A stretch of DNA of 64,000 bases from Promethearchaeota archaeon (GTDB taxonomy: Archaea > Asgardarchaeota > Lokiarchaeia > Sigyniarchaeales > SOKP01): positions 448,001-512,000 of the forward strand of contig JBHLOY010000002.1 of assembly GCA_048939995.1 (NCBI GenBank). Reading direction: 5' to 3'. A program made the translations under genes and the position numbers. This document shows, piece by piece, positions 49,561 to 60,850 of the stretch; position 1 is the stretch's first letter; each line of letters starts with the position of its first letter. The notes below the pieces were generated by a model. It searched no databases and was not told the origin of the DNA. It saw only the letters and a list, made by a program, of their open reading frames with translations.

Positions 49561-52434
49561 TTAAAAAAAGATACCTTTCTTTCTGAAAAGCAATTTGAAA
49601 AGTTCAAGTCCTCCAATACAAATCAATGAGATTAAAAAGCATACTAACCAATCGAGACCGGTTAAATACATAAACATAAAATTTATACCCCAAGATTGTA
49701 GAGTTACTTGAAACCCAGGAATATACATTAAAGCAATAAAAACTCCGAATAATAAGCCAATTAAAAGATACATAAACTTGGTACTATCTTCTTTAAGGCT
49801 TCTAATTAAGGATTTATTTGGTCGTCTGATCTGGTACACTAGAAAAGATTCACAAAAAAATAGGGTTACCATAAGCATTGTAAGAGTTTTTGCTTGAGAA
49901 GGGGAAACACCTGGGGGAAATGATCCACCTGAAAAGAGGTAAGCACCGTTGAAAGCACCAAATTCATAGTTTTCTATAAAAACGGGATAACAACCTGTAA
50001 TAACTGTAAAATAGGTTATAATCATACAGCTGGCTAATAAGATACCAAATATAAGCAGTAGAATAAACGTGTTTTTTGAAAGAATTTGCTCCTCATCGCG
50101 TGGTTTTTGTTTCATAACATCTTTAGGAGTACGATCGAATGTTAATATTAAACCAGGGAATATATGTAAAGTTATTGAGAGAAATATCCATTGATAATAG
50201 AAAGCATCAGATAGAAAATAGGGTTGCCTCAAAATTACCGTCAGAATGAATTGTACAATCCCTTCAAATACATTAATCACAATATAAAAAAATACAACTG
50301 CACGAATTCGAGAAAAAATTCCTCTACCTTGTTCAATTCCCGTAACAATAGAATTAAATGAATCATCACTGATAACCATATCACTTGCTTCTTTAGCTAC
50401 ATCCGTTCCTTGTATTCCCATAGCTATCCCTGCATCAGCCATATTGAGAGCTAAAGCATCATTCACTCCATCTCCCGTCATAGCAACTACCTTATTTGCA
50501 TTTTGATATCTTTCCACAATATCCTCTTTATCTTCAGGAGAAACCCTAGCAAAAGCTTTAATTTTGCTGAAATCGTAGAATGACTTGATACTATTGACAT
50601 TTTTCCCCTCTATGACTATTTCATCTTCATGCTTTATTATAGATATTTGTTTTGCTATAGCTTCTGCTGTAGCGGGAGAATCTCCTGTTATCATTACTAC
50701 ATCAACCCCAGCTTCATAACATTGAAGGACACTTGCTTTAACACCTTCTCTAGGAGGATCTAAAATAGTTACAAAACCGATATAAATCATTTCTGATTCG
50801 CATAATTCTCTACTTTTGTCTCCTTCTGGAGGAATTTCATCTAATTTCTTATAACAGATACTTAATATCCGATAGCCTTGCTGTGCATATAGATCTGCTA
50901 TTTTATTTATTTTTTCTTTTATAATATCTGTAAAATCTACCTCAGTGTCTTTATATAGTACTTTTTTACATTGAGGCATGAGAATTTCACTAGCACCTTT
51001 CGTGAAAGAATAATATTTTCCATCTCTCTTGTATATCTTTGTCATTCTTTTTAATTTAGAATCAAATGGGTATTCCTTGATATACTCAAAATCGTCAAGC
51101 ATATAATCACCCATTCCTTTCTGGAAGAGGACCATCAAAGCACCTTCAGTCGGTGAGCCAATTACATTCCAGTTGGGTATAATCTTCCCAGAGATTTCAA
51201 TTTCATTTTTCACTAACGCAGAATTATTATTTAAAAATCCAGCAATTAATAACAGTTTAAGTTGAGGATAATTATCAATGTGTTTTACGTAAACAGGATT
51301 TTTTGGATCGTCTAATAAAATAATATCTCCATCGGGCGTATATCCACTTCCAGTAACTTTGAAAGTAGAGCCATTTGTCCATACATTTTGGATTGACATT
51401 TGGTTTTTCGTTAATGTACCAGTTTTATCAGAACAGACAACACTTACACGCCCTAGACTGTCAACAGAGGCAAGATTTCTGATAATAACACCCTGGCGAG
51501 CCATAACTAGAACTCCAGTTATCAAGATGATTGTTACAAGTAAGGGAATATTAATTGGTAAAAGATCCATGGCAGAATTCAAGCTAACTACAATTTCCAA
51601 ATCGCCCCAAATCCCTAAATTAATAAGCACAATTATTAACCAAAATCCAATCACAATTAGACCTAACCATTTTCCGAAGTTATTCATTTTCTGTCTAATT
51701 GGAATCTCACTTGTTCCTGCTTCCTCCAATCCTTTTGATATTTTGCCAATCTCTGTATCTCTTCCTGTTTTAACTGCAATCGCAATACCGTTACCAGTTG
51801 TGATATATGTCCCGTAAAATATCATATTGACTCGTTCTCCAATTGAAAGTTCTTTACTTTCTAACGCTTTTCCTTCTTGAAGCTTCTTTACAGGCTCACT
51901 CTCTCCACTAAGTGAGGCTTCATTGACTTCAAGATTGGACGATCTTATTATTCTTCCATCTGCTGGGATTCGATCTCCTTGCGTTAATACAAGTAAATCT
52001 CCTAAAACTACTTCCTTTGTTGCAATATCAATTTTTTCTCCATTTCTTATTACTGTCGTAGTCGGAGCTGTCATTTCTCTTAGGGCATTCAATTTTTTAG
52101 TTGCTCGATATTGTTGGATAATGGCAACCAAACAATTTAGAGCAACAATTCCCAAGGTTAATCCTATAAAAGTTAGATTACCTTCTCCACCCAAAACTGC
52201 TGCTAAAAATAATATTAAAGCCCCAATTAAATAAATAACAATTAACCAATTGAATAAGGGTGCTAAATATATTTTAATGAAACCTTTCGAAGCTTTAGGA
52301 ATTTCATTTAATCCATATAGTTCTAATCGTTTTTGAGCTTCTTCTTTAGATAATCCATTAGTTGGATGAGTTTGAAATTTTGAGTAAATTTGATTTAATT
52401 CCATCGAATAAAATGGTTCTATTGATACAGTCAT
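49561..52434 (-). CDS. P-type ATPase (P2-like scaffold, atypical TM4 PINIP)
   Basis: SGES, DKTGT, KGASE, TGD, GDGVND; about 10 TM. Confidence 0.92.
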   Translation of the reverse strand: MTVSIEPFYSMELNQIYSKFQTHPTNGLSKEEAQKRLELYGLNEIPKASKGFIKIYLAPLFNWLIVIYLIGALILFLAAVLGGEGNLTFIGLTLGIVALNCLVAIIQQYRATKKLNALREMTAPTTTVIRNGEKIDIATKEVVLGDLLVLTQGDRIPADGRIIRSSNLEVNEASLSGESEPVKKLQEGKALESKELSIGERVNMIFYGTYITTGNGIAIAVKTGRDTEIGKISKGLEEAGTSEIPIRQKMNNFGKWLGLIVIGFWLIIVLINLGIWGDLEIVVSLNSAMDLLPINIPLLVTIILITGVLVMARQGVIIRNLASVDSLGRVSVVCSDKTGTLTKNQMSIQNVWTNGSTFKVTGSGYTPDGDIILLDDPKNPVYVKHIDNYPQLKLLLIAGFLNNNSALVKNEIEISGKIIPNWNVIGSPTEGALMVLFQKGMGDYMLDDFEYIKEYPFDSKLKRMTKIYKRDGKYYSFTKGASEILMPQCKKVLYKDTEVDFTDIIKEKINKIADLYAQQGYRILSICYKKLDEIPPEGDKSRELCESEMIYIGFVTILDPPREGVKASVLQCYEAGVDVVMITGDSPATAEAIAKQISIIKHEDEIVIEGKNVNSIKSFYDFSKIKAFARVSPEDKEDIVERYQNANKVVAMTGDGVNDALALNMADAGIAMGIQGTDVAKEASDMVISDDSFNSIVTGIEQGRGIFSRIRAVVFFYIVINVFEGIVQFILTVILRQPYFLSDAFYYQWIFLSITLHIFPGLILTFDRTPKDVMKQKPRDEEQILSKNTFILLLIFGILLASCMIITYFTVITGCYPVFIENYEFGAFNGAYLFSGGSFPPGVSPSQAKTLTMLMVTLFFCESFLVYQIRRPNKSLIRSLKEDSTKFMYLLIGLLFGVFIALMYIPGFQVTLQSWGINFMFMYLTGLDWLVCFLISLICIGGLELFKLLFRKKGIFF

Positions 52435-52607
52435 AAGAATAGTCTCTCCCGCGACTTTTAAAAATTTTACAATATATGATGATAAGATTAAATCATTTTA
52501 ATAGATAGACTATAATAACAATTATTTTTATTTTATTTCTTTTTGAAACTAATTAGTAGTTTAAGAAATTAATTAAAAGAAAAAATGAGATTAGATTTTA
52601 ATTAGTC

Positions 52608-54332
52608 TTATAAAACTCCCGCATCTTTTAGAATCTGCTTATGATCAAAAGCCAAATCTATGCTTTTTACTTTTTCTATTGGTATCGCTTCAGCTATAAC
52701 TGCATCATCTCCTCCTGCCATTTCTGACAGATCTTTGACTAAGCGACATTTGAACGCCGTTGATACAATCCTACCGCGTGGATCACGCCCCTTTTTATCA
52801 TATGTACCAATCTTTTTAATAATTTCAACCACAAGATTAGTTTCCTCCCTAACTTCTCTTATTACAGCTTTTTCAGCATCTTCATTATATTGAATAAAAC
52901 CACCTGGAAGTGCATATTTTCCCCTTTCGGGATAATACTTTCTTTTAATAAGTATAAGATTTTGACTATCATCTAAAATGACAGCATCAGCAGTATATCC
53001 TTTTTCTTCTACTTTAGACTGCAATCGATATAAGAAAATGTAGGTAAAAGTTACTATAAACATTAATCCAATAACAGTTGAAGCAATGAGGTATGCTATA
53101 TTTCCGTATTGTAATGGATTTGTTCCTTGTATTAAAACATCAAAGAAGTCTTTTAAAATTCCCGCACTCAATATGATATTAACGAGATATAAAATTCTCC
53201 TTGTAGTTCTTTGATTCTTTTCATTTCTTTGAGTATAATATTCTTGCAATGAGTCATAGAGTAGTTCAAATTTCTTGGCGACTCTTTTCATTATTTTTTC
53301 GATTCGAAATATATCTAAAAGATGAGTTAAAATCCGTGTATAATGTTCTCGAGGGTTCCAGTCTAATTTACTATATAGCATGGTCATTTTCGTTTGGATC
53401 ATTCCCCTTAAAAATCTTAAGTTATCTATTTTACTTTCAATAGTTTCCAAACTCATAAAAACGTATGAATATCGTTTCATAAATAGTATATCCAATGAAT
53501 TTTCTATTGTCATTAATGCAAATAAAACAGATCTCACTTTTGGAGTAGGATCTAGTATATGTTCTTCAATATATTTGAACTCTTTTTGATAATTGTCTTG
53601 TACCATATATATGAAACCTGAATTTCTCTGAATATAATGTAATTCAGAAAGCCGATTAGAAAAATTCTTCTCTGTCCTTCTATCAAATAGTTCCTCAGAA
53701 TAATCAGGCCACTGCCCAGAATAGATTCGTGTCCAATATCCAATGCTTTTTTTATATTGTTCTCGATTATTACTATCCCATTGAACAGTATGGGGCATTG
53801 TTTTATTAGAGATAACGAAAACATAAATAGGACTTTCTAAATCAAGGATTAAAAACTCATTTTCCCTTCTTTTATTAAATTCTTTAAGAATATCTACAGC
53901 GATAAAGGGAACTTGTTGGATCAAATCAGGAGTTATTTTTTCTTTCTTATATTCCTCATTCTTATAATATTCAACTTCTAATTTGAAATATCCGAGAGTG
54001 TTATATTCTAATTTTTTTTGTTCATCAACTTCCGAATATGGCTTATTTTCGTCAGTGTAAGGAAAACTTTGGAAATATGGTTCCCAATCGCATTCTATTG
54101 ATATTGAACTTGCCATATCTCTTAATGTTTCTTTCTTTATTTCAGCCTGCGGATATTTATCTAAATATAAAAAAGCTTTACTAAAGTCTTCCTCACTTAA
54201 ATTACGTAATCTTCTTATTAATAATTCTTCTATTTGTTCTGCCTTTATTTCCCCAACGAATTCAACCGTATTAATAAAAGCACTGATATACCAGTATTCT
54301 TTTCCGTAGATAAAACGTAGGTTTTCTTCCAT
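52608..54332 (-). CDS. CorA-like 2-TM protein fused to C-terminal NUDIX hydrolase
   Basis: Large soluble N-terminus, long helices, two TM segments, then Nudix box GGFIQYNEDAEKAVIREVREETNL, RDPRG, LAFDH. Confidence 0.75.
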   Translation of the reverse strand: MEENLRFIYGKEYWYISAFINTVEFVGEIKAEQIEELLIRRLRNLSEEDFSKAFLYLDKYPQAEIKKETLRDMASSISIECDWEPYFQSFPYTDENKPYSEVDEQKKLEYNTLGYFKLEVEYYKNEEYKKEKITPDLIQQVPFIAVDILKEFNKRRENEFLILDLESPIYVFVISNKTMPHTVQWDSNNREQYKKSIGYWTRIYSGQWPDYSEELFDRRTEKNFSNRLSELHYIQRNSGFIYMVQDNYQKEFKYIEEHILDPTPKVRSVLFALMTIENSLDILFMKRYSYVFMSLETIESKIDNLRFLRGMIQTKMTMLYSKLDWNPREHYTRILTHLLDIFRIEKIMKRVAKKFELLYDSLQEYYTQRNEKNQRTTRRILYLVNIILSAGILKDFFDVLIQGTNPLQYGNIAYLIASTVIGLMFIVTFTYIFLYRLQSKVEEKGYTADAVILDDSQNLILIKRKYYPERGKYALPGGFIQYNEDAEKAVIREVREETNLVVEIIKKIGTYDKKGRDPRGRIVSTAFKCRLVKDLSEMAGGDDAVIAEAIPIEKVKSIDLAFDHKQILKDAGVL

Positions 54333-54433
54333 TTGTAATTTGCCCTCTTAGTTATTTTTATTTAGAGTGATTAAATAATTATTAAATTGTTATTCTATTT
54401 ATTACTTTTTTTTCAAAATAAATATTATTACTT

Positions 54434-55249
54434 TTAAATTTCTTTATTAGATTTTAATTTAACTCTAATTTTTTGAAAAACTTTATTCCAATCAATATAT
54501 ACCAGCAAGAATAGAAGAATAATTGATGCCGCCCAAACTAATGAACTTTGGAAAATCTCTAAAGGTGTGCTGGGAGGAATAATTCCCAATCGCGCAGCGT
54601 CAATATCTATGCCAAATAAACCAAACAGAAAAATTCCTAATGAAGTATCAGCAAGCCAAATTGGGAGTGCGCTACATAAAAAGCATAGGGTGAATTTTCC
54701 AGCGAAACAATATATCAATGTCTTAACGAGGCTATATTGAGCAAGTCCTAAAACGATTAGAAATGCATCGTCTGGAAGAGGTGTAGCTGCAAAAATGAAA
54801 ATCAGGATTGGAGCCCAACCTTTATCTACATATCTTTTCATCCTTTCCATACTTTTAGAATCTCCGATAATTTCTTTTGAACTGCGTCCAATTAACCATG
54901 CACTTACTTCTCCAATACTAGCTCCTAATCCAGCTACAATTCCAATTAATATGGGATTTACACCAGGTATTACGGCAGATATCACGATTAAAGCAACAAC
55001 ATAAGGAACGGGAAAAATTATTGTAAAATTACCGAAAATACTAATTAAAAATATCCCTAGATATATTCCAAAATCCCCAAATTCATTATAGAACCATATA
55101 ACTGCGTTAGCAAGCCATTGACCAAAATTGATGTTTAATAATGCAAATATAATAAATAAAATTAAAATCGCACCAATAAATATTATTCCTCCATACTTTT
55201 TCAGAAAACTAAATCCTTTAGAATTTTTTACTCTATTTCCACTATTCAT
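54434..55249 (-). CDS. VTT/DedA-superfamily (SNARE-associated Golgi, VMP1/TMEM41-like) membrane protein
   Basis: IFPVPY, GLGASIGE..AWLIGR, FAATPLPDD, AGK. Confidence 0.82.
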   Translation of the reverse strand: MNSGNRVKNSKGFSFLKKYGGIIFIGAILILFIIFALLNINFGQWLANAVIWFYNEFGDFGIYLGIFLISIFGNFTIIFPVPYVVALIVISAVIPGVNPILIGIVAGLGASIGEVSAWLIGRSSKEIIGDSKSMERMKRYVDKGWAPILIFIFAATPLPDDAFLIVLGLAQYSLVKTLIYCFAGKFTLCFLCSALPIWLADTSLGIFLFGLFGIDIDAARLGIIPPSTPLEIFQSSLVWAASIILLFLLVYIDWNKVFQKIRVKLKSNKEI

Positions 55250-55278
55250 CTGTGATCTCCTAAATAAATATATTATAA

Positions 55279-58131
55279 TTAAAATCTGATGTTTCTTCTT
55301 CTTGCGAAATACTTCACTACTTCAATTCCAATTATACCCGGCAGAGAAAATAGGATGCAATAGAACCAGTCTGTAAGACTTAGGAACATAAAATTAATTT
55401 GGAAATTTAATCCCGATGCCTCATTTAAAAAATAATTTATTGGTGCTGAGAAACAAATATGCAAAATGTGTAAGGATAATGTAAAAAGGCTAATAATTAA
55501 CAATTTCCAATTAAATTCCTCTTTAATACTCTTAAAAAGCGATTTATTTGGTCGCCTGATACTCCAAATGAAGTTTGTCTCAACGATATAAAGGGTAGTA
55601 ATAAACATAGTTCTCGCTTTTTGGGCTAACCCTACTGATCCAGAATAGCTTAAGTCAATATTATAGGAATTTAATGGGATTAGGTTTGCTAGGGTCATTT
55701 GTAATGCTAAGACTAAGCCTAAACCCATTAGGAACGCATGTATAAGTAGCAATCCCCAGATATTTCTGTTTAGTATTTCTTCTCCATTTCGTGGAGGTTC
55801 CTGCATTACATCCTTAGGTGCTTTATCTATAACTAATGCTAAAGAGGGAAGTGAATGGACTATACCAAAAATGTAAAGATGTTGCCATTCGGAACTAAAT
55901 AGTTGAAAAACTCCGGGCGGGATGAATTCATAAGTAAAAAATATTAGAGCTTCCATTATATTTAAACAAATAAAGAAGTATACAATTACTCTTATCTTAG
56001 CAAACAATCCCCTCCCGATTTTTACACCTTTTACTATAGATGTAAAATTATCATCTGATATGACCAAATCTGCTGTTTCTTTAGCTACATCTGTGCCAGT
56101 AATTCCCATAGCTATTCCGGTATTAGCTAACTTTAATGCTAAAGCATCATTTATACCATCACCCGTCATAGCTACAATCTTATTAGCATTCTGGTACTTT
56201 CTTACTATAACCTCTTTATCTGAAGGAGATACTCTAGCAAAAACAGATACACGGTTAAATTCACTGTCATCAAGATCAGATATCTTGGATCCTTCAGCAA
56301 CTATATCATTTGGTTTAAATATTCTCATTTGGGAGGCAATTGTTTGAGCAGTGTTTGGATGATCTCCTGTGATCATAGTAACTTTAATACCTCCAGATTC
56401 ACATTCTTCTACTGATTCTCTAACATAATTACGAGGTGGATCTAGAATTGATAAAAAACTTAGAAAAGTTAAATCTTTCTCGATATTTTCTCTTGCCTTC
56501 TCAGCTTCATTTTCTAACTCTTTATACGCTATAGCTAAGATTCTGTATCCTTGTTTTGCTCTTGATTGTATTTTATCTAATAGCTCTTGTTTCTTCTCTT
56601 TTGACAATAAGCTAATTATTCCATCAATTTCAATCTGATTAGTAATTTCTAATATTTTTTCGGGAGCTCCTTTGGAAAATACATAATTAGTATTTTTATC
56701 ACTATTTAATCTACAAATAGTTGACATTCGTTTGATTTCAGAACTGAATGAAAATTCTTTTAGCTTAGTATAAGATTTTATAATATCATATGGAATATAA
56801 CCTGCTTTTTCAGCTAAGGTTAGCAATGATGCTTCAGTAGAGGAGCCTAATGCCCTTCTAACTGCCATTTGTTTGACATCTTTTAGTTTAACTTTAACAT
56901 CTTCATAAATGAGTCTTGCATTATTATTTAACACACTTGATTCAATGAATTTTTGAAATGTTTTATCTTCTTTTAAATTTACAGCTTTACCATTATCTAG
57001 AATAATACCCTCTGCTTCATAACCAGAACCTGTTACACAATATTCCTTATCATTTATCCAAAATTTTTCAACTGTCATTTCATTTCTAGTTATCGTTCCA
57101 GTTTTATCTGAGCAAATTACAGAAACCCTACCTAAAGATTCAATAGCTGAAAGATTCTTAATTATGACTCCACTTTCAGCCATTTTTAGTACTCCTGTAA
57201 TTAAAACTAACGTAGTTAATATAGGCAAATTTATAGGCATAATATTCATTGACCTAAGGATTGAACTAGTTAAAGCTTCACTAATATTATCTCCGTAGAA
57301 AAGTCCTTGAATTCCTAAGAAGCTGAATTTATATATTATTAGGATAATTAGGATTACAATTACAATACTACCTAAAATATATCCTATTCTGTTCAATTTT
57401 TTAGTTAATGGGATTTCTTCAATACTACCCATTTCATTTAATTGATTCGAGATTTTACCTATTTCGGTATTGATGCCCGTTCCTGTCACTAAAGCCCTTG
57501 CTCTTCCAGTATTTATATAGGTCCCCATAAACACCATGTTAAGTTGTTTTTGTATTGGTAATTCCCCATTTCTCAGAGTATAATTATGTTTTTCAACAGG
57601 TTCGCTCTCACCAGTTAAGGAAGCTTCATCAATTGTTAAATTAGTAAATTCTATTATTCTAGCATCTGCAGGAGTTTTATCTCCTTCTTCCAATAAAATT
57701 ATATCTCCTGGTAATAATTCTCGAGTGGGTATTTCAAATTGTATACCATCTCTTAGAACCACTGCTTTTAAAGCACCAATTTTTCTAAGGGATTCAAGAG
57801 CTTTTTGTGCTCTGAATTGCTGAATTATTACAGTTATAGAATTTAGAATTACTACTATGAACGTAATTATTGTGGATCCCGGTGAACCTAAAAAAAGCAC
57901 AAGAATCCCAGAAATAAGTAAAATTATAATCAAAAAATTGAATATAGGAGCTAAATAAATTTTCCAGATTGATTTTTTAATTTTGGGTAACTCGTTGTAT
58001 CCAAAACTAGAATAACGAGATTCCAAATCAGATGAATTTAAACCTTTTTCTTTATCACTAGTAAAAGTTTGAATTAATTCTGGTATTGTTTGAGAGTAAT
58101 ATTTATTATTAGATATTGGAAATTCTGACAT
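55279..58131 (-). CDS. P-type ATPase (P2-like scaffold, atypical TM4 PINLP)
   Basis: TGES, DKTGT, KGAPE, TGD, GDGIND; about 10 TM; paralog of 49561..52434. Confidence 0.92.
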   Translation of the reverse strand: MSEFPISNNKYYSQTIPELIQTFTSDKEKGLNSSDLESRYSSFGYNELPKIKKSIWKIYLAPIFNFLIIILLISGILVLFLGSPGSTIITFIVVILNSITVIIQQFRAQKALESLRKIGALKAVVLRDGIQFEIPTRELLPGDIILLEEGDKTPADARIIEFTNLTIDEASLTGESEPVEKHNYTLRNGELPIQKQLNMVFMGTYINTGRARALVTGTGINTEIGKISNQLNEMGSIEEIPLTKKLNRIGYILGSIVIVILIILIIYKFSFLGIQGLFYGDNISEALTSSILRSMNIMPINLPILTTLVLITGVLKMAESGVIIKNLSAIESLGRVSVICSDKTGTITRNEMTVEKFWINDKEYCVTGSGYEAEGIILDNGKAVNLKEDKTFQKFIESSVLNNNARLIYEDVKVKLKDVKQMAVRRALGSSTEASLLTLAEKAGYIPYDIIKSYTKLKEFSFSSEIKRMSTICRLNSDKNTNYVFSKGAPEKILEITNQIEIDGIISLLSKEKKQELLDKIQSRAKQGYRILAIAYKELENEAEKARENIEKDLTFLSFLSILDPPRNYVRESVEECESGGIKVTMITGDHPNTAQTIASQMRIFKPNDIVAEGSKISDLDDSEFNRVSVFARVSPSDKEVIVRKYQNANKIVAMTGDGINDALALKLANTGIAMGITGTDVAKETADLVISDDNFTSIVKGVKIGRGLFAKIRVIVYFFICLNIMEALIFFTYEFIPPGVFQLFSSEWQHLYIFGIVHSLPSLALVIDKAPKDVMQEPPRNGEEILNRNIWGLLLIHAFLMGLGLVLALQMTLANLIPLNSYNIDLSYSGSVGLAQKARTMFITTLYIVETNFIWSIRRPNKSLFKSIKEEFNWKLLIISLFTLSLHILHICFSAPINYFLNEASGLNFQINFMFLSLTDWFYCILFSLPGIIGIEVVKYFARRRNIRF

Positions 58132-58214: not shown

Positions 58215-59180
58215 TTATGCCTTGATAGTTTGAGGATCTCCAAGAATGCCTTTTAAAACGTTAAATTTTTTTCTAATTGTAGTACTTGAGAATTTTGTGG
58301 TTTCTTCTATAATACTCTGGGTAAAAATTTTCTTATTATCAAGTGTTTGCCCTATATAATAAATCAAGCCAGCAGTAAAGGCTTTATAATTCAGATTTTG
58401 AACATCAGAGTATTTTATCTGCTGTAGTAATTTGGCGACTAGTAATTGCATCTCAACTTTTAATTTATCATATTCAGATTTGCTTGAAAAATGATTTTTT
58501 ATTTTATCATAGGTAATATTATTAAGATCTTTTTGGAATAATATTTTAATTTTTTCTTTGATTTCACGTTCTAGAGTTGAAGTATCCTTGAGATCTTTAT
58601 TGAACGTATTCTCTGTTCGCTTTACCTTAAGCATAGCATTATTAAGCATTTTTTTATTAATTTTATGTCCTAATTCTCGAGCAATTCTAATGTATTCTTC
58701 TAACCTTACGTTTGTTGTATCTTTTATTTCCAACCAGAGAATTGCTAAAAAGATTATAACCATATTTTGATATGTATGTCTATGATACTTGTTATATTTA
58801 AGATATCTATCCTTGATTTCTTGATACTTTACTTTATCAATATTTAATCCTATCCCATAACTCTTAAATAGTTCAATAGTTTTTTTTTGTTCAGAAAAGC
58901 TTGATTGATAATCTCTATACCAAATGTCTAATGTCTTTATTTGGTCATATTTTTGTTTTATTTTGGGGTCTTGAATTGCTTTTGAATCACCTGACCTAAT
59001 TTTTCGCTCATAATTTATCTGAGAATCTGAATATAAAATAGGGGTGGTAGATTCCTCAAAAGCAATGCGATCCTCAAAAATTAAACCGCAATCTTTACAA
59101 ACTAAATAACCACCATTTTGCTCAATATTCTTATGGTCACATTTAGAGTCTTCAGAGTTTATAGTTCTTTTTTTTTTCAA
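58215..59180 (-). CDS. Divergent TFIIB/TFB-like protein
   Basis: Zn ribbon CDH..VCKDCG; C-terminal cyclin-repeat HTH AGLIYY..TQSII..SSTTIRK. Confidence 0.65.
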   Translation of the reverse strand: MKKKRTINSEDSKCDHKNIEQNGGYLVCKDCGLIFEDRIAFEESTTPILYSDSQINYERKIRSGDSKAIQDPKIKQKYDQIKTLDIWYRDYQSSFSEQKKTIELFKSYGIGLNIDKVKYQEIKDRYLKYNKYHRHTYQNMVIIFLAILWLEIKDTTNVRLEEYIRIARELGHKINKKMLNNAMLKVKRTENTFNKDLKDTSTLEREIKEKIKILFQKDLNNITYDKIKNHFSSKSEYDKLKVEMQLLVAKLLQQIKYSDVQNLNYKAFTAGLIYYIGQTLDNKKIFTQSIIEETTKFSSTTIRKKFNVLKGILGDPQTIKA

Positions 59181-59926: not shown

Positions 59927-60850
59927 TTATAACAATTTCCTTTTAATTTGCTTTGCTCTACTTCTTAGGGTCACTTCGGTGATTTTAGCAACATCTGCTA
60001 CAATAGACTGAGTTTTGCGGAGTCCACGATCCTTAGCGGAAATATATATGCAAGCAGCTGCTAATCCTTTTGGATCTTTTCCAGTACGTTTCAATCCATT
60101 TTCAGAAGCTTTTCTAAGCATATCAATTGCACATTTCTGAACTGCCATGGGCAAATCAAGCTCGTTTCCAAAACGGAAAACCAAACTTTCAGCTGTAATA
60201 GGCTGATAACGTAACCCTAATTCAGGTAATACTTCTCGTATGATCATAGCCAAGCTTCTGTGAACTGTTCGTCTTGGAGTTAGCGATGCCTCACAAACCT
60301 CATCTAATAAACGAGGAAAATCATGAACTCTTATAGCCGCATATAGGGATCCTGCTATAAAACCATTGATTGAACGGCCCATCGTTAACTTTTTCTTTGC
60401 TACTATACTATAAACTTTCCAAGCAGTTTCACTTATATATTCTGGAATATTTAATTTTGAAGTGAGCATTTTTAATTTGGGCTTTGCTTCCCAAAAGTTT
60501 CTCTCAATACTTGAAATTAAAGAATTTTGAATTTTTGATAATCTTGAGAATAAAGCTTGTTCTTTTGGTCCTATTGATTTTCCTTTTGAATCTGTTTTGG
60601 TTGAGGGTAACATTGTCCTCGGGCCAAAATCCCTCCACCTTGGTTCAGTTCTACGTCTTGTTTGAACTTCTTCGGCTGTATACGCCCTTCGTTCGTTTCC
60701 TACATATGTCCTTTCAATAATAATCCCACAATTCAAACAAACCTTATTTCCGTCTCGCTCTTCTATATTTGGGTCTTCACAGCAATCACGAATTTGTAAA
60801 TCATCATCTAAATTCTTATTCTTCAGAAGATCACGGTAAATATTATTCAT
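59927..60850 (-). CDS. tfb: Transcription initiation factor IIB (TFB)
   Basis: Zn ribbon VCLNCG, GRSI, PRLLDEV, GKDPKGLAAACIY, TQ..VA..TEVTLRSR. Confidence 0.93.
   Translation of the reverse strand: MNNIYRDLLKNKNLDDDLQIRDCCEDPNIEERDGNKVCLNCGIIIERTYVGNERRAYTAEEVQTRRRTEPRWRDFGPRTMLPSTKTDSKGKSIGPKEQALFSRLSKIQNSLISSIERNFWEAKPKLKMLTSKLNIPEYISETAWKVYSIVAKKKLTMGRSINGFIAGSLYAAIRVHDFPRLLDEVCEASLTPRRTVHRSLAMIIREVLPELGLRYQPITAESLVFRFGNELDLPMAVQKCAIDMLRKASENGLKRTGKDPKGLAAACIYISAKDRGLRKTQSIVADVAKITEVTLRSRAKQIKRKLL

Follow-up and report, generated by a model that had tools for sequence, protein, structure and literature searches.

Two P-type ATPases of a Promethearchaeota archaeon belong to an Asgard clade with a P2A scaffold and a rebuilt transport site

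The window analyzed here (a 64,000-nucleotide stretch of a Promethearchaeota contig) encodes two intact P-type ATPases, A and B, that are predicted from their motifs to be ATP-driven pumps. They very probably belong to an undescribed clade derived from P2A pumps (the PIN clade), one that lies outside both the canonical Ca2+ pumps and P4. The two genes and the sites discussed below are as follows.

49561..52434, minus strand: ATPase A, 957 aa, with PINIP in TM4, a paralogue of B with the same rebuilt site (ORF, Pfam, NCBIfam, tree)
50155..50175, minus strand: TM6 of A, ITLHIFP, with His at the D800 position
51544..51558, minus strand: TM4 of A, PINIP
55279..58131, minus strand: ATPase B, 950 aa, a P-type ATPase on a P2A scaffold with a rebuilt site and PINLP in TM4 (ORF, Pfam, NCBIfam, AlphaFold, tree)
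55579..55581, minus strand: TM8 of B, E851, equivalent to SERCA E908
55846..55863, minus strand: TM6 of B, IVHSLP
55855..55869, minus strand: TM6 of B from F755 (where N796 is lost) to H759 (the position of SERCA D800 and AHA2 D684)
55951..55962, minus strand: TM5 of B, N724 to E727, equivalent to SERCA N768 and E771
57094..57108, minus strand: DKTGT phosphorylation motif of B, with D342, 43 residues past the TM4 proline
57223..57237, minus strand: TM4 of B, PINLP (P299-I300-N301-L302-P303), with I300 equivalent to SERCA E309

Both ORFs are complete, and the two proteins are 40% identical across 991 columns. As an earlier note on this DNA had read, the DKTGT, SGES/TGES, TGD and GDGxND motifs are intact in both; these catalytic motifs, a ten-helix membrane domain and a TIGR01494 score above cut-off place A and B in the P-type superfamily. 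The P2A-like layout described in that note also held, with the best sequence, profile, PDB and Foldseek matches all P2A. Shared with the Ca2+-ATPases LMCA1, SPCA1/PMR1 and SERCA are the domain layout, TGES, DKTGT, the 43-residue TM4 spacing, the TM5 N..E pair and the TM8 Glu. AlphaFold modeled B with a pLDDT of 89 and a pTM of 0.84. Structural comparison found the fold nearest SPCA1, SERCA and LMCA1, whereas P4 reached only 18-19% identity in structural alignment. A and B scored under every P2A equivalog cut-off (455 vs 798 bits), and their nearest homologues carry Promethearchaeota or Lokiarchaeota labels.

Alignment with LMCA1 placed Ile in the E309 column and His in the D800 column of both proteins. 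The TM4 motifs lie exactly where the earlier note had put them, its reading of the TM6 Ca2+ ligands as replaced (Asp to His) was borne out, and the TM5 N..E and TM8 Glu that it described as retained are present in A and B. We then tabulated conservation across 79 non-redundant members (<70% identity), with 104 ordinary P2A sequences as controls. The E309 position (B 300) is never acidic and always hydrophobic (Ile in 65 of 77, Val in 4, Phe in 4, Leu in 2 and Trp in 2), and the next position, SERCA G310, is Asn (N301) in 71/77, with Ser or Thr in some members. The N796 column (B 755) holds Phe, Tyr, Ser, Val, Ala or Ile (Phe or Tyr in 46/75), the T799 position is variable with the original Thr lost, and D800 is replaced by His (H759) in 73 of 74. 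Thus no member retains the side chains with which TM4 and TM6 bind Ca2+ at site II. Retained are the TM5 Glu (E727, 75/75), the TM8 Glu (E851, 71/74), the TM2 Asn (N97, 73/75) and usually N724, which is variable in some members. Family-specific changes also occur in TM1 and TM2 (Y59, P62, Q105).

A pattern found in 79 members is not due to chance when the controls hold E309 in 102/104 and D800 in 95/104. Intact ORFs, and the recurrence of the motif across 79 diverse members, likewise rule out sequencing error or a pseudogene. Because site II is erased, with E309 hydrophobic and N796 lost, while the TM5 Glu, TM6 His and TM8 Glu are kept, the suggestion that these are not ordinary calcium pumps is supported: E309, N796, T799 and D800 are replaced clade-wide, and genomes with the clade, the host genome included, hold a separate PEGL pump. 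The E727/H759 pair is the predicted core of the rebuilt site because both residues persist where E851, lost in one lineage, or N724 varies.

Sampling of 32 Asgard family groups found the clade in 17. It is mostly Asgard-archaeal and expanded in Lokiarchaeia; most other Asgard lineages carry a single stand-alone copy. The cultured Promethearchaeum syntrophicum, of the same order as the host, has three (one is WP_147661680.1). Database labels call the members Ca2+ or generic cation pumps. No description of the clade, and no characterized clade covering the PINIP/PINLP motif, turned up in the openly accessible literature searched, which took in two structural surveys of Asgard proteins from 2026.

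In the trees, the PIN clade is monophyletic (support 100/99), contains both A and B and falls among P2A-type pumps. The sequences indicate that the clade is old and descends from P2A Ca2+ pumps of prokaryotes. P4 was represented in the trees by DGETNLK-type sequences only, as pattern scans of viral contigs yielded neither P4B nor P5 rows; P3A was represented by one sequence, which branched apart from P2 in every tree. Nesting of P4 within the PIN core was rejected (AU p=0.032), and just 12 and 17 replicates per 1000 bootstraps (1-2%) recovered a P4-sister grouping. The AU test, which lacks power at this point, did not reject a sister relationship between P4 and the clade as a whole (p=0.44 and 0.24), nor did it reject the control grouping P4+P2C (p=0.38).

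The earlier note had proposed a P4-flippase-like TM4 and a possible P2-to-P4 intermediate, a reading that comparison with Drs2, ATP8A1/2 and Neo1 did not support. The likeness lies in two adjacent residues, Ile (or Leu/Val) at E309 and a small polar one after it. Relative to the P4 PISL, the clade shares the Ile, has Asn in place of Ser and keeps a second Pro. However, P3A proton pumps show the same combination of Ile or Val at E309 and a second proline (GIPIAMP in AHA2, GVPVGLP in Pma1), which leaves the P4-like reading of TM4 unsupported. We also rejected NxxPI as a conserved P4 motif, its N being one of at least six states; across the clade this residue (Pro-3) is unconserved, again with at least six. 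At Pro-4, P4 has Asn, Ser or Gln, whereas the clade mostly has Met (48/77). The DGET motif, whose Asp is present in 13/13 P4 sequences, is lacking, as the note had recognized (first position Thr in 74, Ser in 1 and Asn in 1). The TM5 Lys (YKN; 12/14 in P4) is replaced by hydrophobic residues, and the TM6 Asn of the N796 column (13/14 in P4) is missing. The TM4 insertion of about 10 residues is also absent: the spacing to the phosphorylated Asp is 51-54 residues in 14/14 P4 sequences and 43 in 29/30 clade members, as in all P1B, P2 and P3 rows. Conversely, the acidic E727 (the E771 position) and E851 sit where P4 is hydrophobic, P4 being without these two membrane carboxylates. Against the P4 profile, A and B scored 100-113 bits (cut-off 431), the clade scored no higher than ordinary P2A (p=0.70), and shared states numbered 5 vs 7.

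Two genes stand between B and A that the earlier note had missed.

52608..54332, minus strand: 574-aa protein with an N-terminal CorA-like part (a lead only) fused to a NUDIX hydrolase (PF00293)
54434..55249, minus strand: 271-aa membrane protein with a VTT/DedA domain (PF09335 at 35.2 bits, cut-off 33.9; synteny), separated from B by 29 nt on the downstream side of B

The CorA-like/NUDIX gene is not conserved at the locus. Close orthologues of the DedA gene lie behind B in 8 of 41 congeners, and a single query detected none at 40 other distinct loci. We treated the pairing as one insertion event and set aside a lipid module with B; the DedA neighbor is a lineage-restricted insertion. The neighboring genes offer no clue to the substrate, and a promoter scan with the consensus sigma-70, uninformative for archaea, stayed at chance level.

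The flippase reading, in which the clade either converged on P4 or is distantly sister to the P4 stem, draws on the PISL-like TM4, the DedA gene and the sister placement that the AU test did not reject; the absence of the P4 determinants and of DedA at the other loci speaks against it. CDC50 is needed by P4A and P4C flippases, whereas P4B flippases work without it. Searches of 400 Asgard genomes, run without a positive control, found neither CDC50 (PF03381) nor P4 (PF16212) above cut-off. On balance we regard any flippase activity as improbable. Convergent lipid flipping is somewhat likelier than flipping combined with P4-sister origin, and to an archaeal ATP-driven lipid translocase that is the surviving sister of the eukaryotic P4 stem we give very little credence.

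A and B are arranged head-to-tail in all 13 distinct host-family loci examined. This arrangement and the dismantled site II could fit a non-transporting or regulatory ATPase, such as a sensor or one that partners some other membrane protein, for instance in an A/B heteromer. The strict conservation of the buried Glu and His and of all catalytic motifs, together with the stand-alone copies elsewhere in Asgard archaea, makes this highly unlikely.

The substrate class that we tentatively favor, at somewhat under an even chance, is H+ or a monovalent cation (Na+, K+, NH4+) carried via the Glu-His pair. The usual E1-E1P-E2P-E2 cycle would drive a small cation needing no TM4 carboxylate, most likely H+, through Glu727 and His759; by analogy, transport is probably export. 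In AHA2, D684 overlaps SERCA D800 and is paired with N106, and R655, a His in fungal pumps, corresponds to E771 (PMC5387105). His759 would occupy the position of the proton acceptor Asp684, and Glu727 that of the built-in Arg/His counter-charge of plant and fungal proton pumps, which would make them a proton-pump acid-base pair with its partners swapped. As in P3A, TM4 of the clade reads P-[IV]-x-x-P and has no Glu, the residue at D800/D684 is titratable, TM5 supplies its opposite partner, and TM2 carries an Asn. Unlike P3A, it has His for Asp in TM6 and Glu for Arg/His in TM5, and it forms a separate branch in all trees. A and B scored 317-332 bits against the P3A profile, below the P2A profiles. 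With the clade inside P2 in the trees and separate from P3A, proton pumping, if it occurs, would have evolved by convergence. The host genome showed no P3A pump when searched by tblastn with A and B and by a scan for DKTG. That clade-bearing genomes also keep PEGL pumps points to a different job for the clade. Against H+, a His at the D684 position is without precedent in a proton pump, since transport requires D684 and survives only its replacement by Glu (D684E; PMC5387105). N97, N724 and E727 are conserved in ordinary P2A also, so some of these residues may be an inheritance and not the product of selection for a new substrate.

A set of two or three carboxylates, a His and an Asn would serve a metal just as well. 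A divalent-metal pump (Mn2+, Fe2+, Zn2+, Ni2+, Co2+, Mg2+, or site-I-only Ca2+, possibly an importer) using Asn724, Glu727, His759 and Glu851 is a possible but unlikely alternative. These four occupy the SERCA site I positions, and E908 is commoner in the clade than in the P2A controls (44/104). P1B-4 pumps cannot do without an M6 His, which acts as ligand or counter-ion (PMC8880997), and CtpE/P6, which lacks the TM6 Asp, imports Ca2+ (PMC10654040). The clade's scaffold and motif set are matched by neither: P1B-4 (sCoaT) has eight helices and an SPC motif, and CtpE, altered in function with its TM6 Asp lost, keeps PEGL. Characterized metal-pumping P-type ATPases use a TM4 side-chain ligand, Glu or Cys, and the clade has none. 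The variation of E851 and N724, the absence of metal-binding domains and the lack of noticed metal-related genes among recurring neighbors also weigh against a metal.

P5B polyamine pumps likewise lack the TM4 Glu. In an organic-cation translocase (for an amine, polyamine or choline-like substrate), loss of site II would open a hydrophobic pocket and the carboxylates would bind the amine. TM4 and TM6 have turned hydrophobic or aromatic, and the TM1/TM2 changes suggest a remodeled pathway. However, the clade has no PP motif corresponding to the P5 PPxLP, and the P5 profile (TIGR01657) gave 231-242 bits (cut-off 618) compared with 453-455 for the P2A profiles. Gene context lends no support and the tree held no P5 rows, and we consider this reading doubtful.

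The clade is old and widespread in the archaeal group nearest eukaryotes, yet it is labelled as Ca2+ or cation pumps despite its dismantled calcium site; caution is warranted, as Asgard P2A-like genes are not all evidence of Ca2+ signaling (compare PMC7997004). Palmgren's review expects further prokaryotic P-type families (PMC10654040). The clade is a concrete candidate for such a family, with a ligand set unmatched among the families compared, and the three copies in P. syntrophicum open it to direct testing. If the clade flipped lipids, the prevailing view that P-type flippases are eukaryote-only would be overturned, and a lipid-transporting sister of the P4 stem would open P4 origin to study in cultured Asgard archaea. 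If the favored proton or cation reading is true, the His-Glu site would represent a novel way of using the SERCA scaffold.

Two complete P-type ATPase genes, A and B, lie head to tail in the window, their products sharing 40% identity. The features considered here are as follows.

49561-52434, minus strand: ATPase A, complete open reading frame, 957 aa (ORF call)
52608-54332, minus strand: 574-aa protein between A and B, in which a C-terminal NUDIX hydrolase is fused to a membrane region resembling CorA (Atlas lead without a Pfam match)
54434-55249, minus strand: VTT/DedA protein (Pfam), between A and B, 29 nt downstream of B
55279-58131, minus strand: ATPase B, complete open reading frame, 950 aa (ORF call)
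58215-59180, minus strand: canonical TFB, upstream of B
59927-60850, minus strand: divergent TFIIB-like protein, upstream of B, two genes apart from TFB

Every motif that the earlier note had reported in A and B was recovered in place, and Pfam detects all five P2-type pump domains in both proteins. Their top NCBIfam scores were to P2A (453 and 455 bits, under the 798 cut-off); the P4 model scored 100 and 113 bits. The closest relatives with solved structures are Listeria LMCA1, SPCA1, and SERCA, and in the alignment to LMCA1 the E309 position is Ile and the D800 position is His (SERCA numbering). The host genome also encodes an ordinary PEGL pump, on contig C28, as well as four P1B pumps.

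Among the 120 closest homologues of B (67-97% identity), nearly all that carry a name are Asgard. Named members are labeled Promethearchaeota, Helarchaeota, or Odinarchaeota, with one Korarchaeota; a near-homologue with a bacterial label, P0063, may be misbinned. When 1.84 billion representatives were searched by profile, about 38 clusters carrying the rewritten site ranked before or amid ordinary PEGL pumps. Using a family profile (members >1,050 bits, other pumps ≤925 bits, one partial match included), we detected members in 30 of 54 Asgard genomes, and TM4 was rewritten in all 30 top loci of those genomes. The family occurs in 17 of 32 family groups sampled, counting the host's own, with absences judged from one, two, or three genomes per group, often incomplete ones, except for one single-contig 1.4-Mb genome. 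Promethearchaeum syntrophicum carries three family members and two PEGL pumps; genomes G138 and G135 carry three and four family copies.

We compared the transport site of 79 family members (<70% identity) with that of 104 P2A controls. The E309 column is hydrophobic (I65, V4, F4, L2, W2), G310 is Asn in 71/77, and the N796 and T799 columns are variable and largely hydrophobic. His occupies D800 in 73/74, Glu occupies E771 in 75/75, and Asn occupies N768 in 64/75; E908 is Glu in 71/74 members vs 44/104 controls. These counts indicate that calcium site II has been stripped of every side-chain ligand, leaving the site I set with His replacing Asp. The TM8 Glu (E851 in B) is gone in one lineage and N724 is variable, yet the TM5 Glu and TM6 His are retained; two loci of family group f16 (L121 and L123) and P0135 have lost the TM8 Glu in this way. 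In the deepest branches AVAAIP, the P2A lead-in, is retained and the TM4 motif is P-F/W/V/L-N-F-P, which shows that the motif was assembled from a P2A ancestor. Three f13 loci (L122, L124, and L127) have PITIP or PISIP, the nearest approach to P4 PISL; because they are nested deep in the clade, they are derived, not ancestral.

The earlier note had suggested that these may be lipid or organic-substrate translocases, possibly intermediate between P2 and P4 or a convergent flippase. Its view that these are not ordinary Ca2+ pumps stands, given the erased site II, but comparison with P4 features did not support the flippase reading. In 14 aligned eukaryotic P4 sequences, recovered from metagenome contigs, the A-domain DGET (13/13), TM5 Lys (12/14), and TM6 Asn (13/14) are present, a Ser follows the Ile (14/14), the second TM4 proline is missing, and neither E771 nor E908 is acidic. 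At every one of these points the family departs from P4. The TM4 proline lies 51-54 residues from the phosphorylated Asp in all P4, whereas the family has 43, as do P1B, P2, and P3. Substrate selection in P4 involves an Asn, Ser, or Gln at Pro-4 (PMC12424579); in the family Pro-4 is mainly Met, and Pro-3 is not conserved. Median P4 HMM scores were alike for the family (112) and ordinary P2A pumps (108; P = 0.70). The diagnostic columns grouped P4 with the family five times and with P2A seven times. Even when the 82-residue TM4-to-DKTGT segment served as the query, the matches were to MgtA, SPCA1, LMCA1, Pma1, and SERCA, and none of the top 60 was a P4. The Ile at E309, the one feature shared with P4, is not specific to it, since the proton pumps AHA2 (GIPIAMP) and Pma1 (GVPVGLP) have a similar TM4, including the second proline. 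Searches of 400 Asgard genomes, run with no positive control, gave no match to CDC50 or the P4 C-terminal domain.

Trees were built with the TM4 motif columns removed, from rows lacking P4B, P5, P2B, and eukaryotic P2A and with P3A as a single row. The family formed one clade in all three (support 100; 100/99; 100/100), amid P2A-type pumps and with no firm single sister. The P4 stem is very long and shifts, falling outside P2 in one tree and within P2 without a firm place in two; P4 was sister to the family in 12/1,000 and 17/1,000 bootstrap trees. Placing P4 on the family's PIN core was rejected (AU P = 0.032). P4 beside the whole family was not (P = 0.44 and 0.24), but a control grouping of P4 with P2C likewise passed (P = 0.38), so this test has low power.

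Several other pumps were seen. A P2A-like Nanoarchaeota ATPase (L076, 4986-7628) with TM4 IPNALP (Asn for E309) and TM6 N..TD kept falls outside the family clade. L311 (G138) and L298 (G123) are P2A-like with PSGLP (Ser for E309), a further non-canonical Asgard variant. L320 (G002) is a short P-type ATPase (764 aa, TM4 PEEIP) on its own long branch. In P0158, P0190, P0193, and P0267 (1,550-1,700 aa), a long N-terminal extension precedes a P2A ATPase that lies in the C-terminal half.

The AlphaFold model of B, from 67 sequences, was confident (pLDDT 89, pTM 0.84). The top 50 Foldseek matches were all P2 pumps, SPCA1 and SERCA first. VIA-align Z scores were 34.0 for PfATP4, 31.2 for LMCA1, 31.1 for SPCA1, 30.2 for AHA2, and 29.7 for SERCA2 vs 24.5-28.3 for P4 structures (17-19% identity); because these gaps are small and conformation dependent, they show only that the fold has no specific likeness to P4.

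A and B are head to tail in 13/13 distinct host-family loci, directly adjacent in 11 and separated by one unrelated ORF in two. Recurring neighbors are of housekeeping type (TFB, DUF362, GNAT, and others), and family genes outside the host family are mainly solitary in changing contexts. The TFB and TFIIB-like genes are kept upstream of B across the host family; the divergent protein has a TFIIB-like zinc ribbon and no Pfam TFIIB repeat match. The NUDIX part of the 574-aa fusion resembles ADP-ribose pyrophosphatases, and the protein could possibly be a nucleotide-regulated channel. Lipid scramblases are found among DedA proteins, making the VTT/DedA gene the best contextual lead for lipid transport by A and B. 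Close orthologues follow B in only 8/41 congeners, none was detected in 40 other distinct loci, and the gene looks like one local insertion of little weight. A distant paralogue of this gene lies on contig C37.

A, B, and the family combine an intact engine and a P2A fold with an erased site II, and a loss of all transport function is very improbable. Conserved residues are Glu727/His759, plus Glu851, Asn724, Asn301, and Asn97 (B numbering). Two buried carboxylates and a His would favor a cationic substrate; an organic cation and a lipid are equally improbable. Asp684 of AHA2 coincides with SERCA Asp800, and its partner, located where SERCA has E771, is a TM5 Arg that fungi replace with His (PMC5387105). 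In the family these two positions are occupied by His and Glu, respectively. Given this arrangement and a TM4 resembling that of proton pumps, our tentative best guess for the substrate is H+ or a monovalent cation. The main rival, a divalent metal at a site-I-type center, seems rather unlikely; an essential M6 His has precedent in P1B-4 pumps (PMC8880997), and CtpE changed direction after loss of its TM6 Asp (PMC10654040).

P4 is regarded in reviews as confined to eukaryotes, and further prokaryotic P-type families are expected to come to light (PMC10654040); a survey of Asgard transporters records no pumps beyond putative ones for Ca2+, Mg2+, and Cu (PMC7997004). We found no prior description of this family in the searchable literature. 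It is of P2A descent, lacks defining features of P2A Ca2+ pumps and of P3A, P4, and P5 ATPases, and would work like a P2/P3 small-ion pump.
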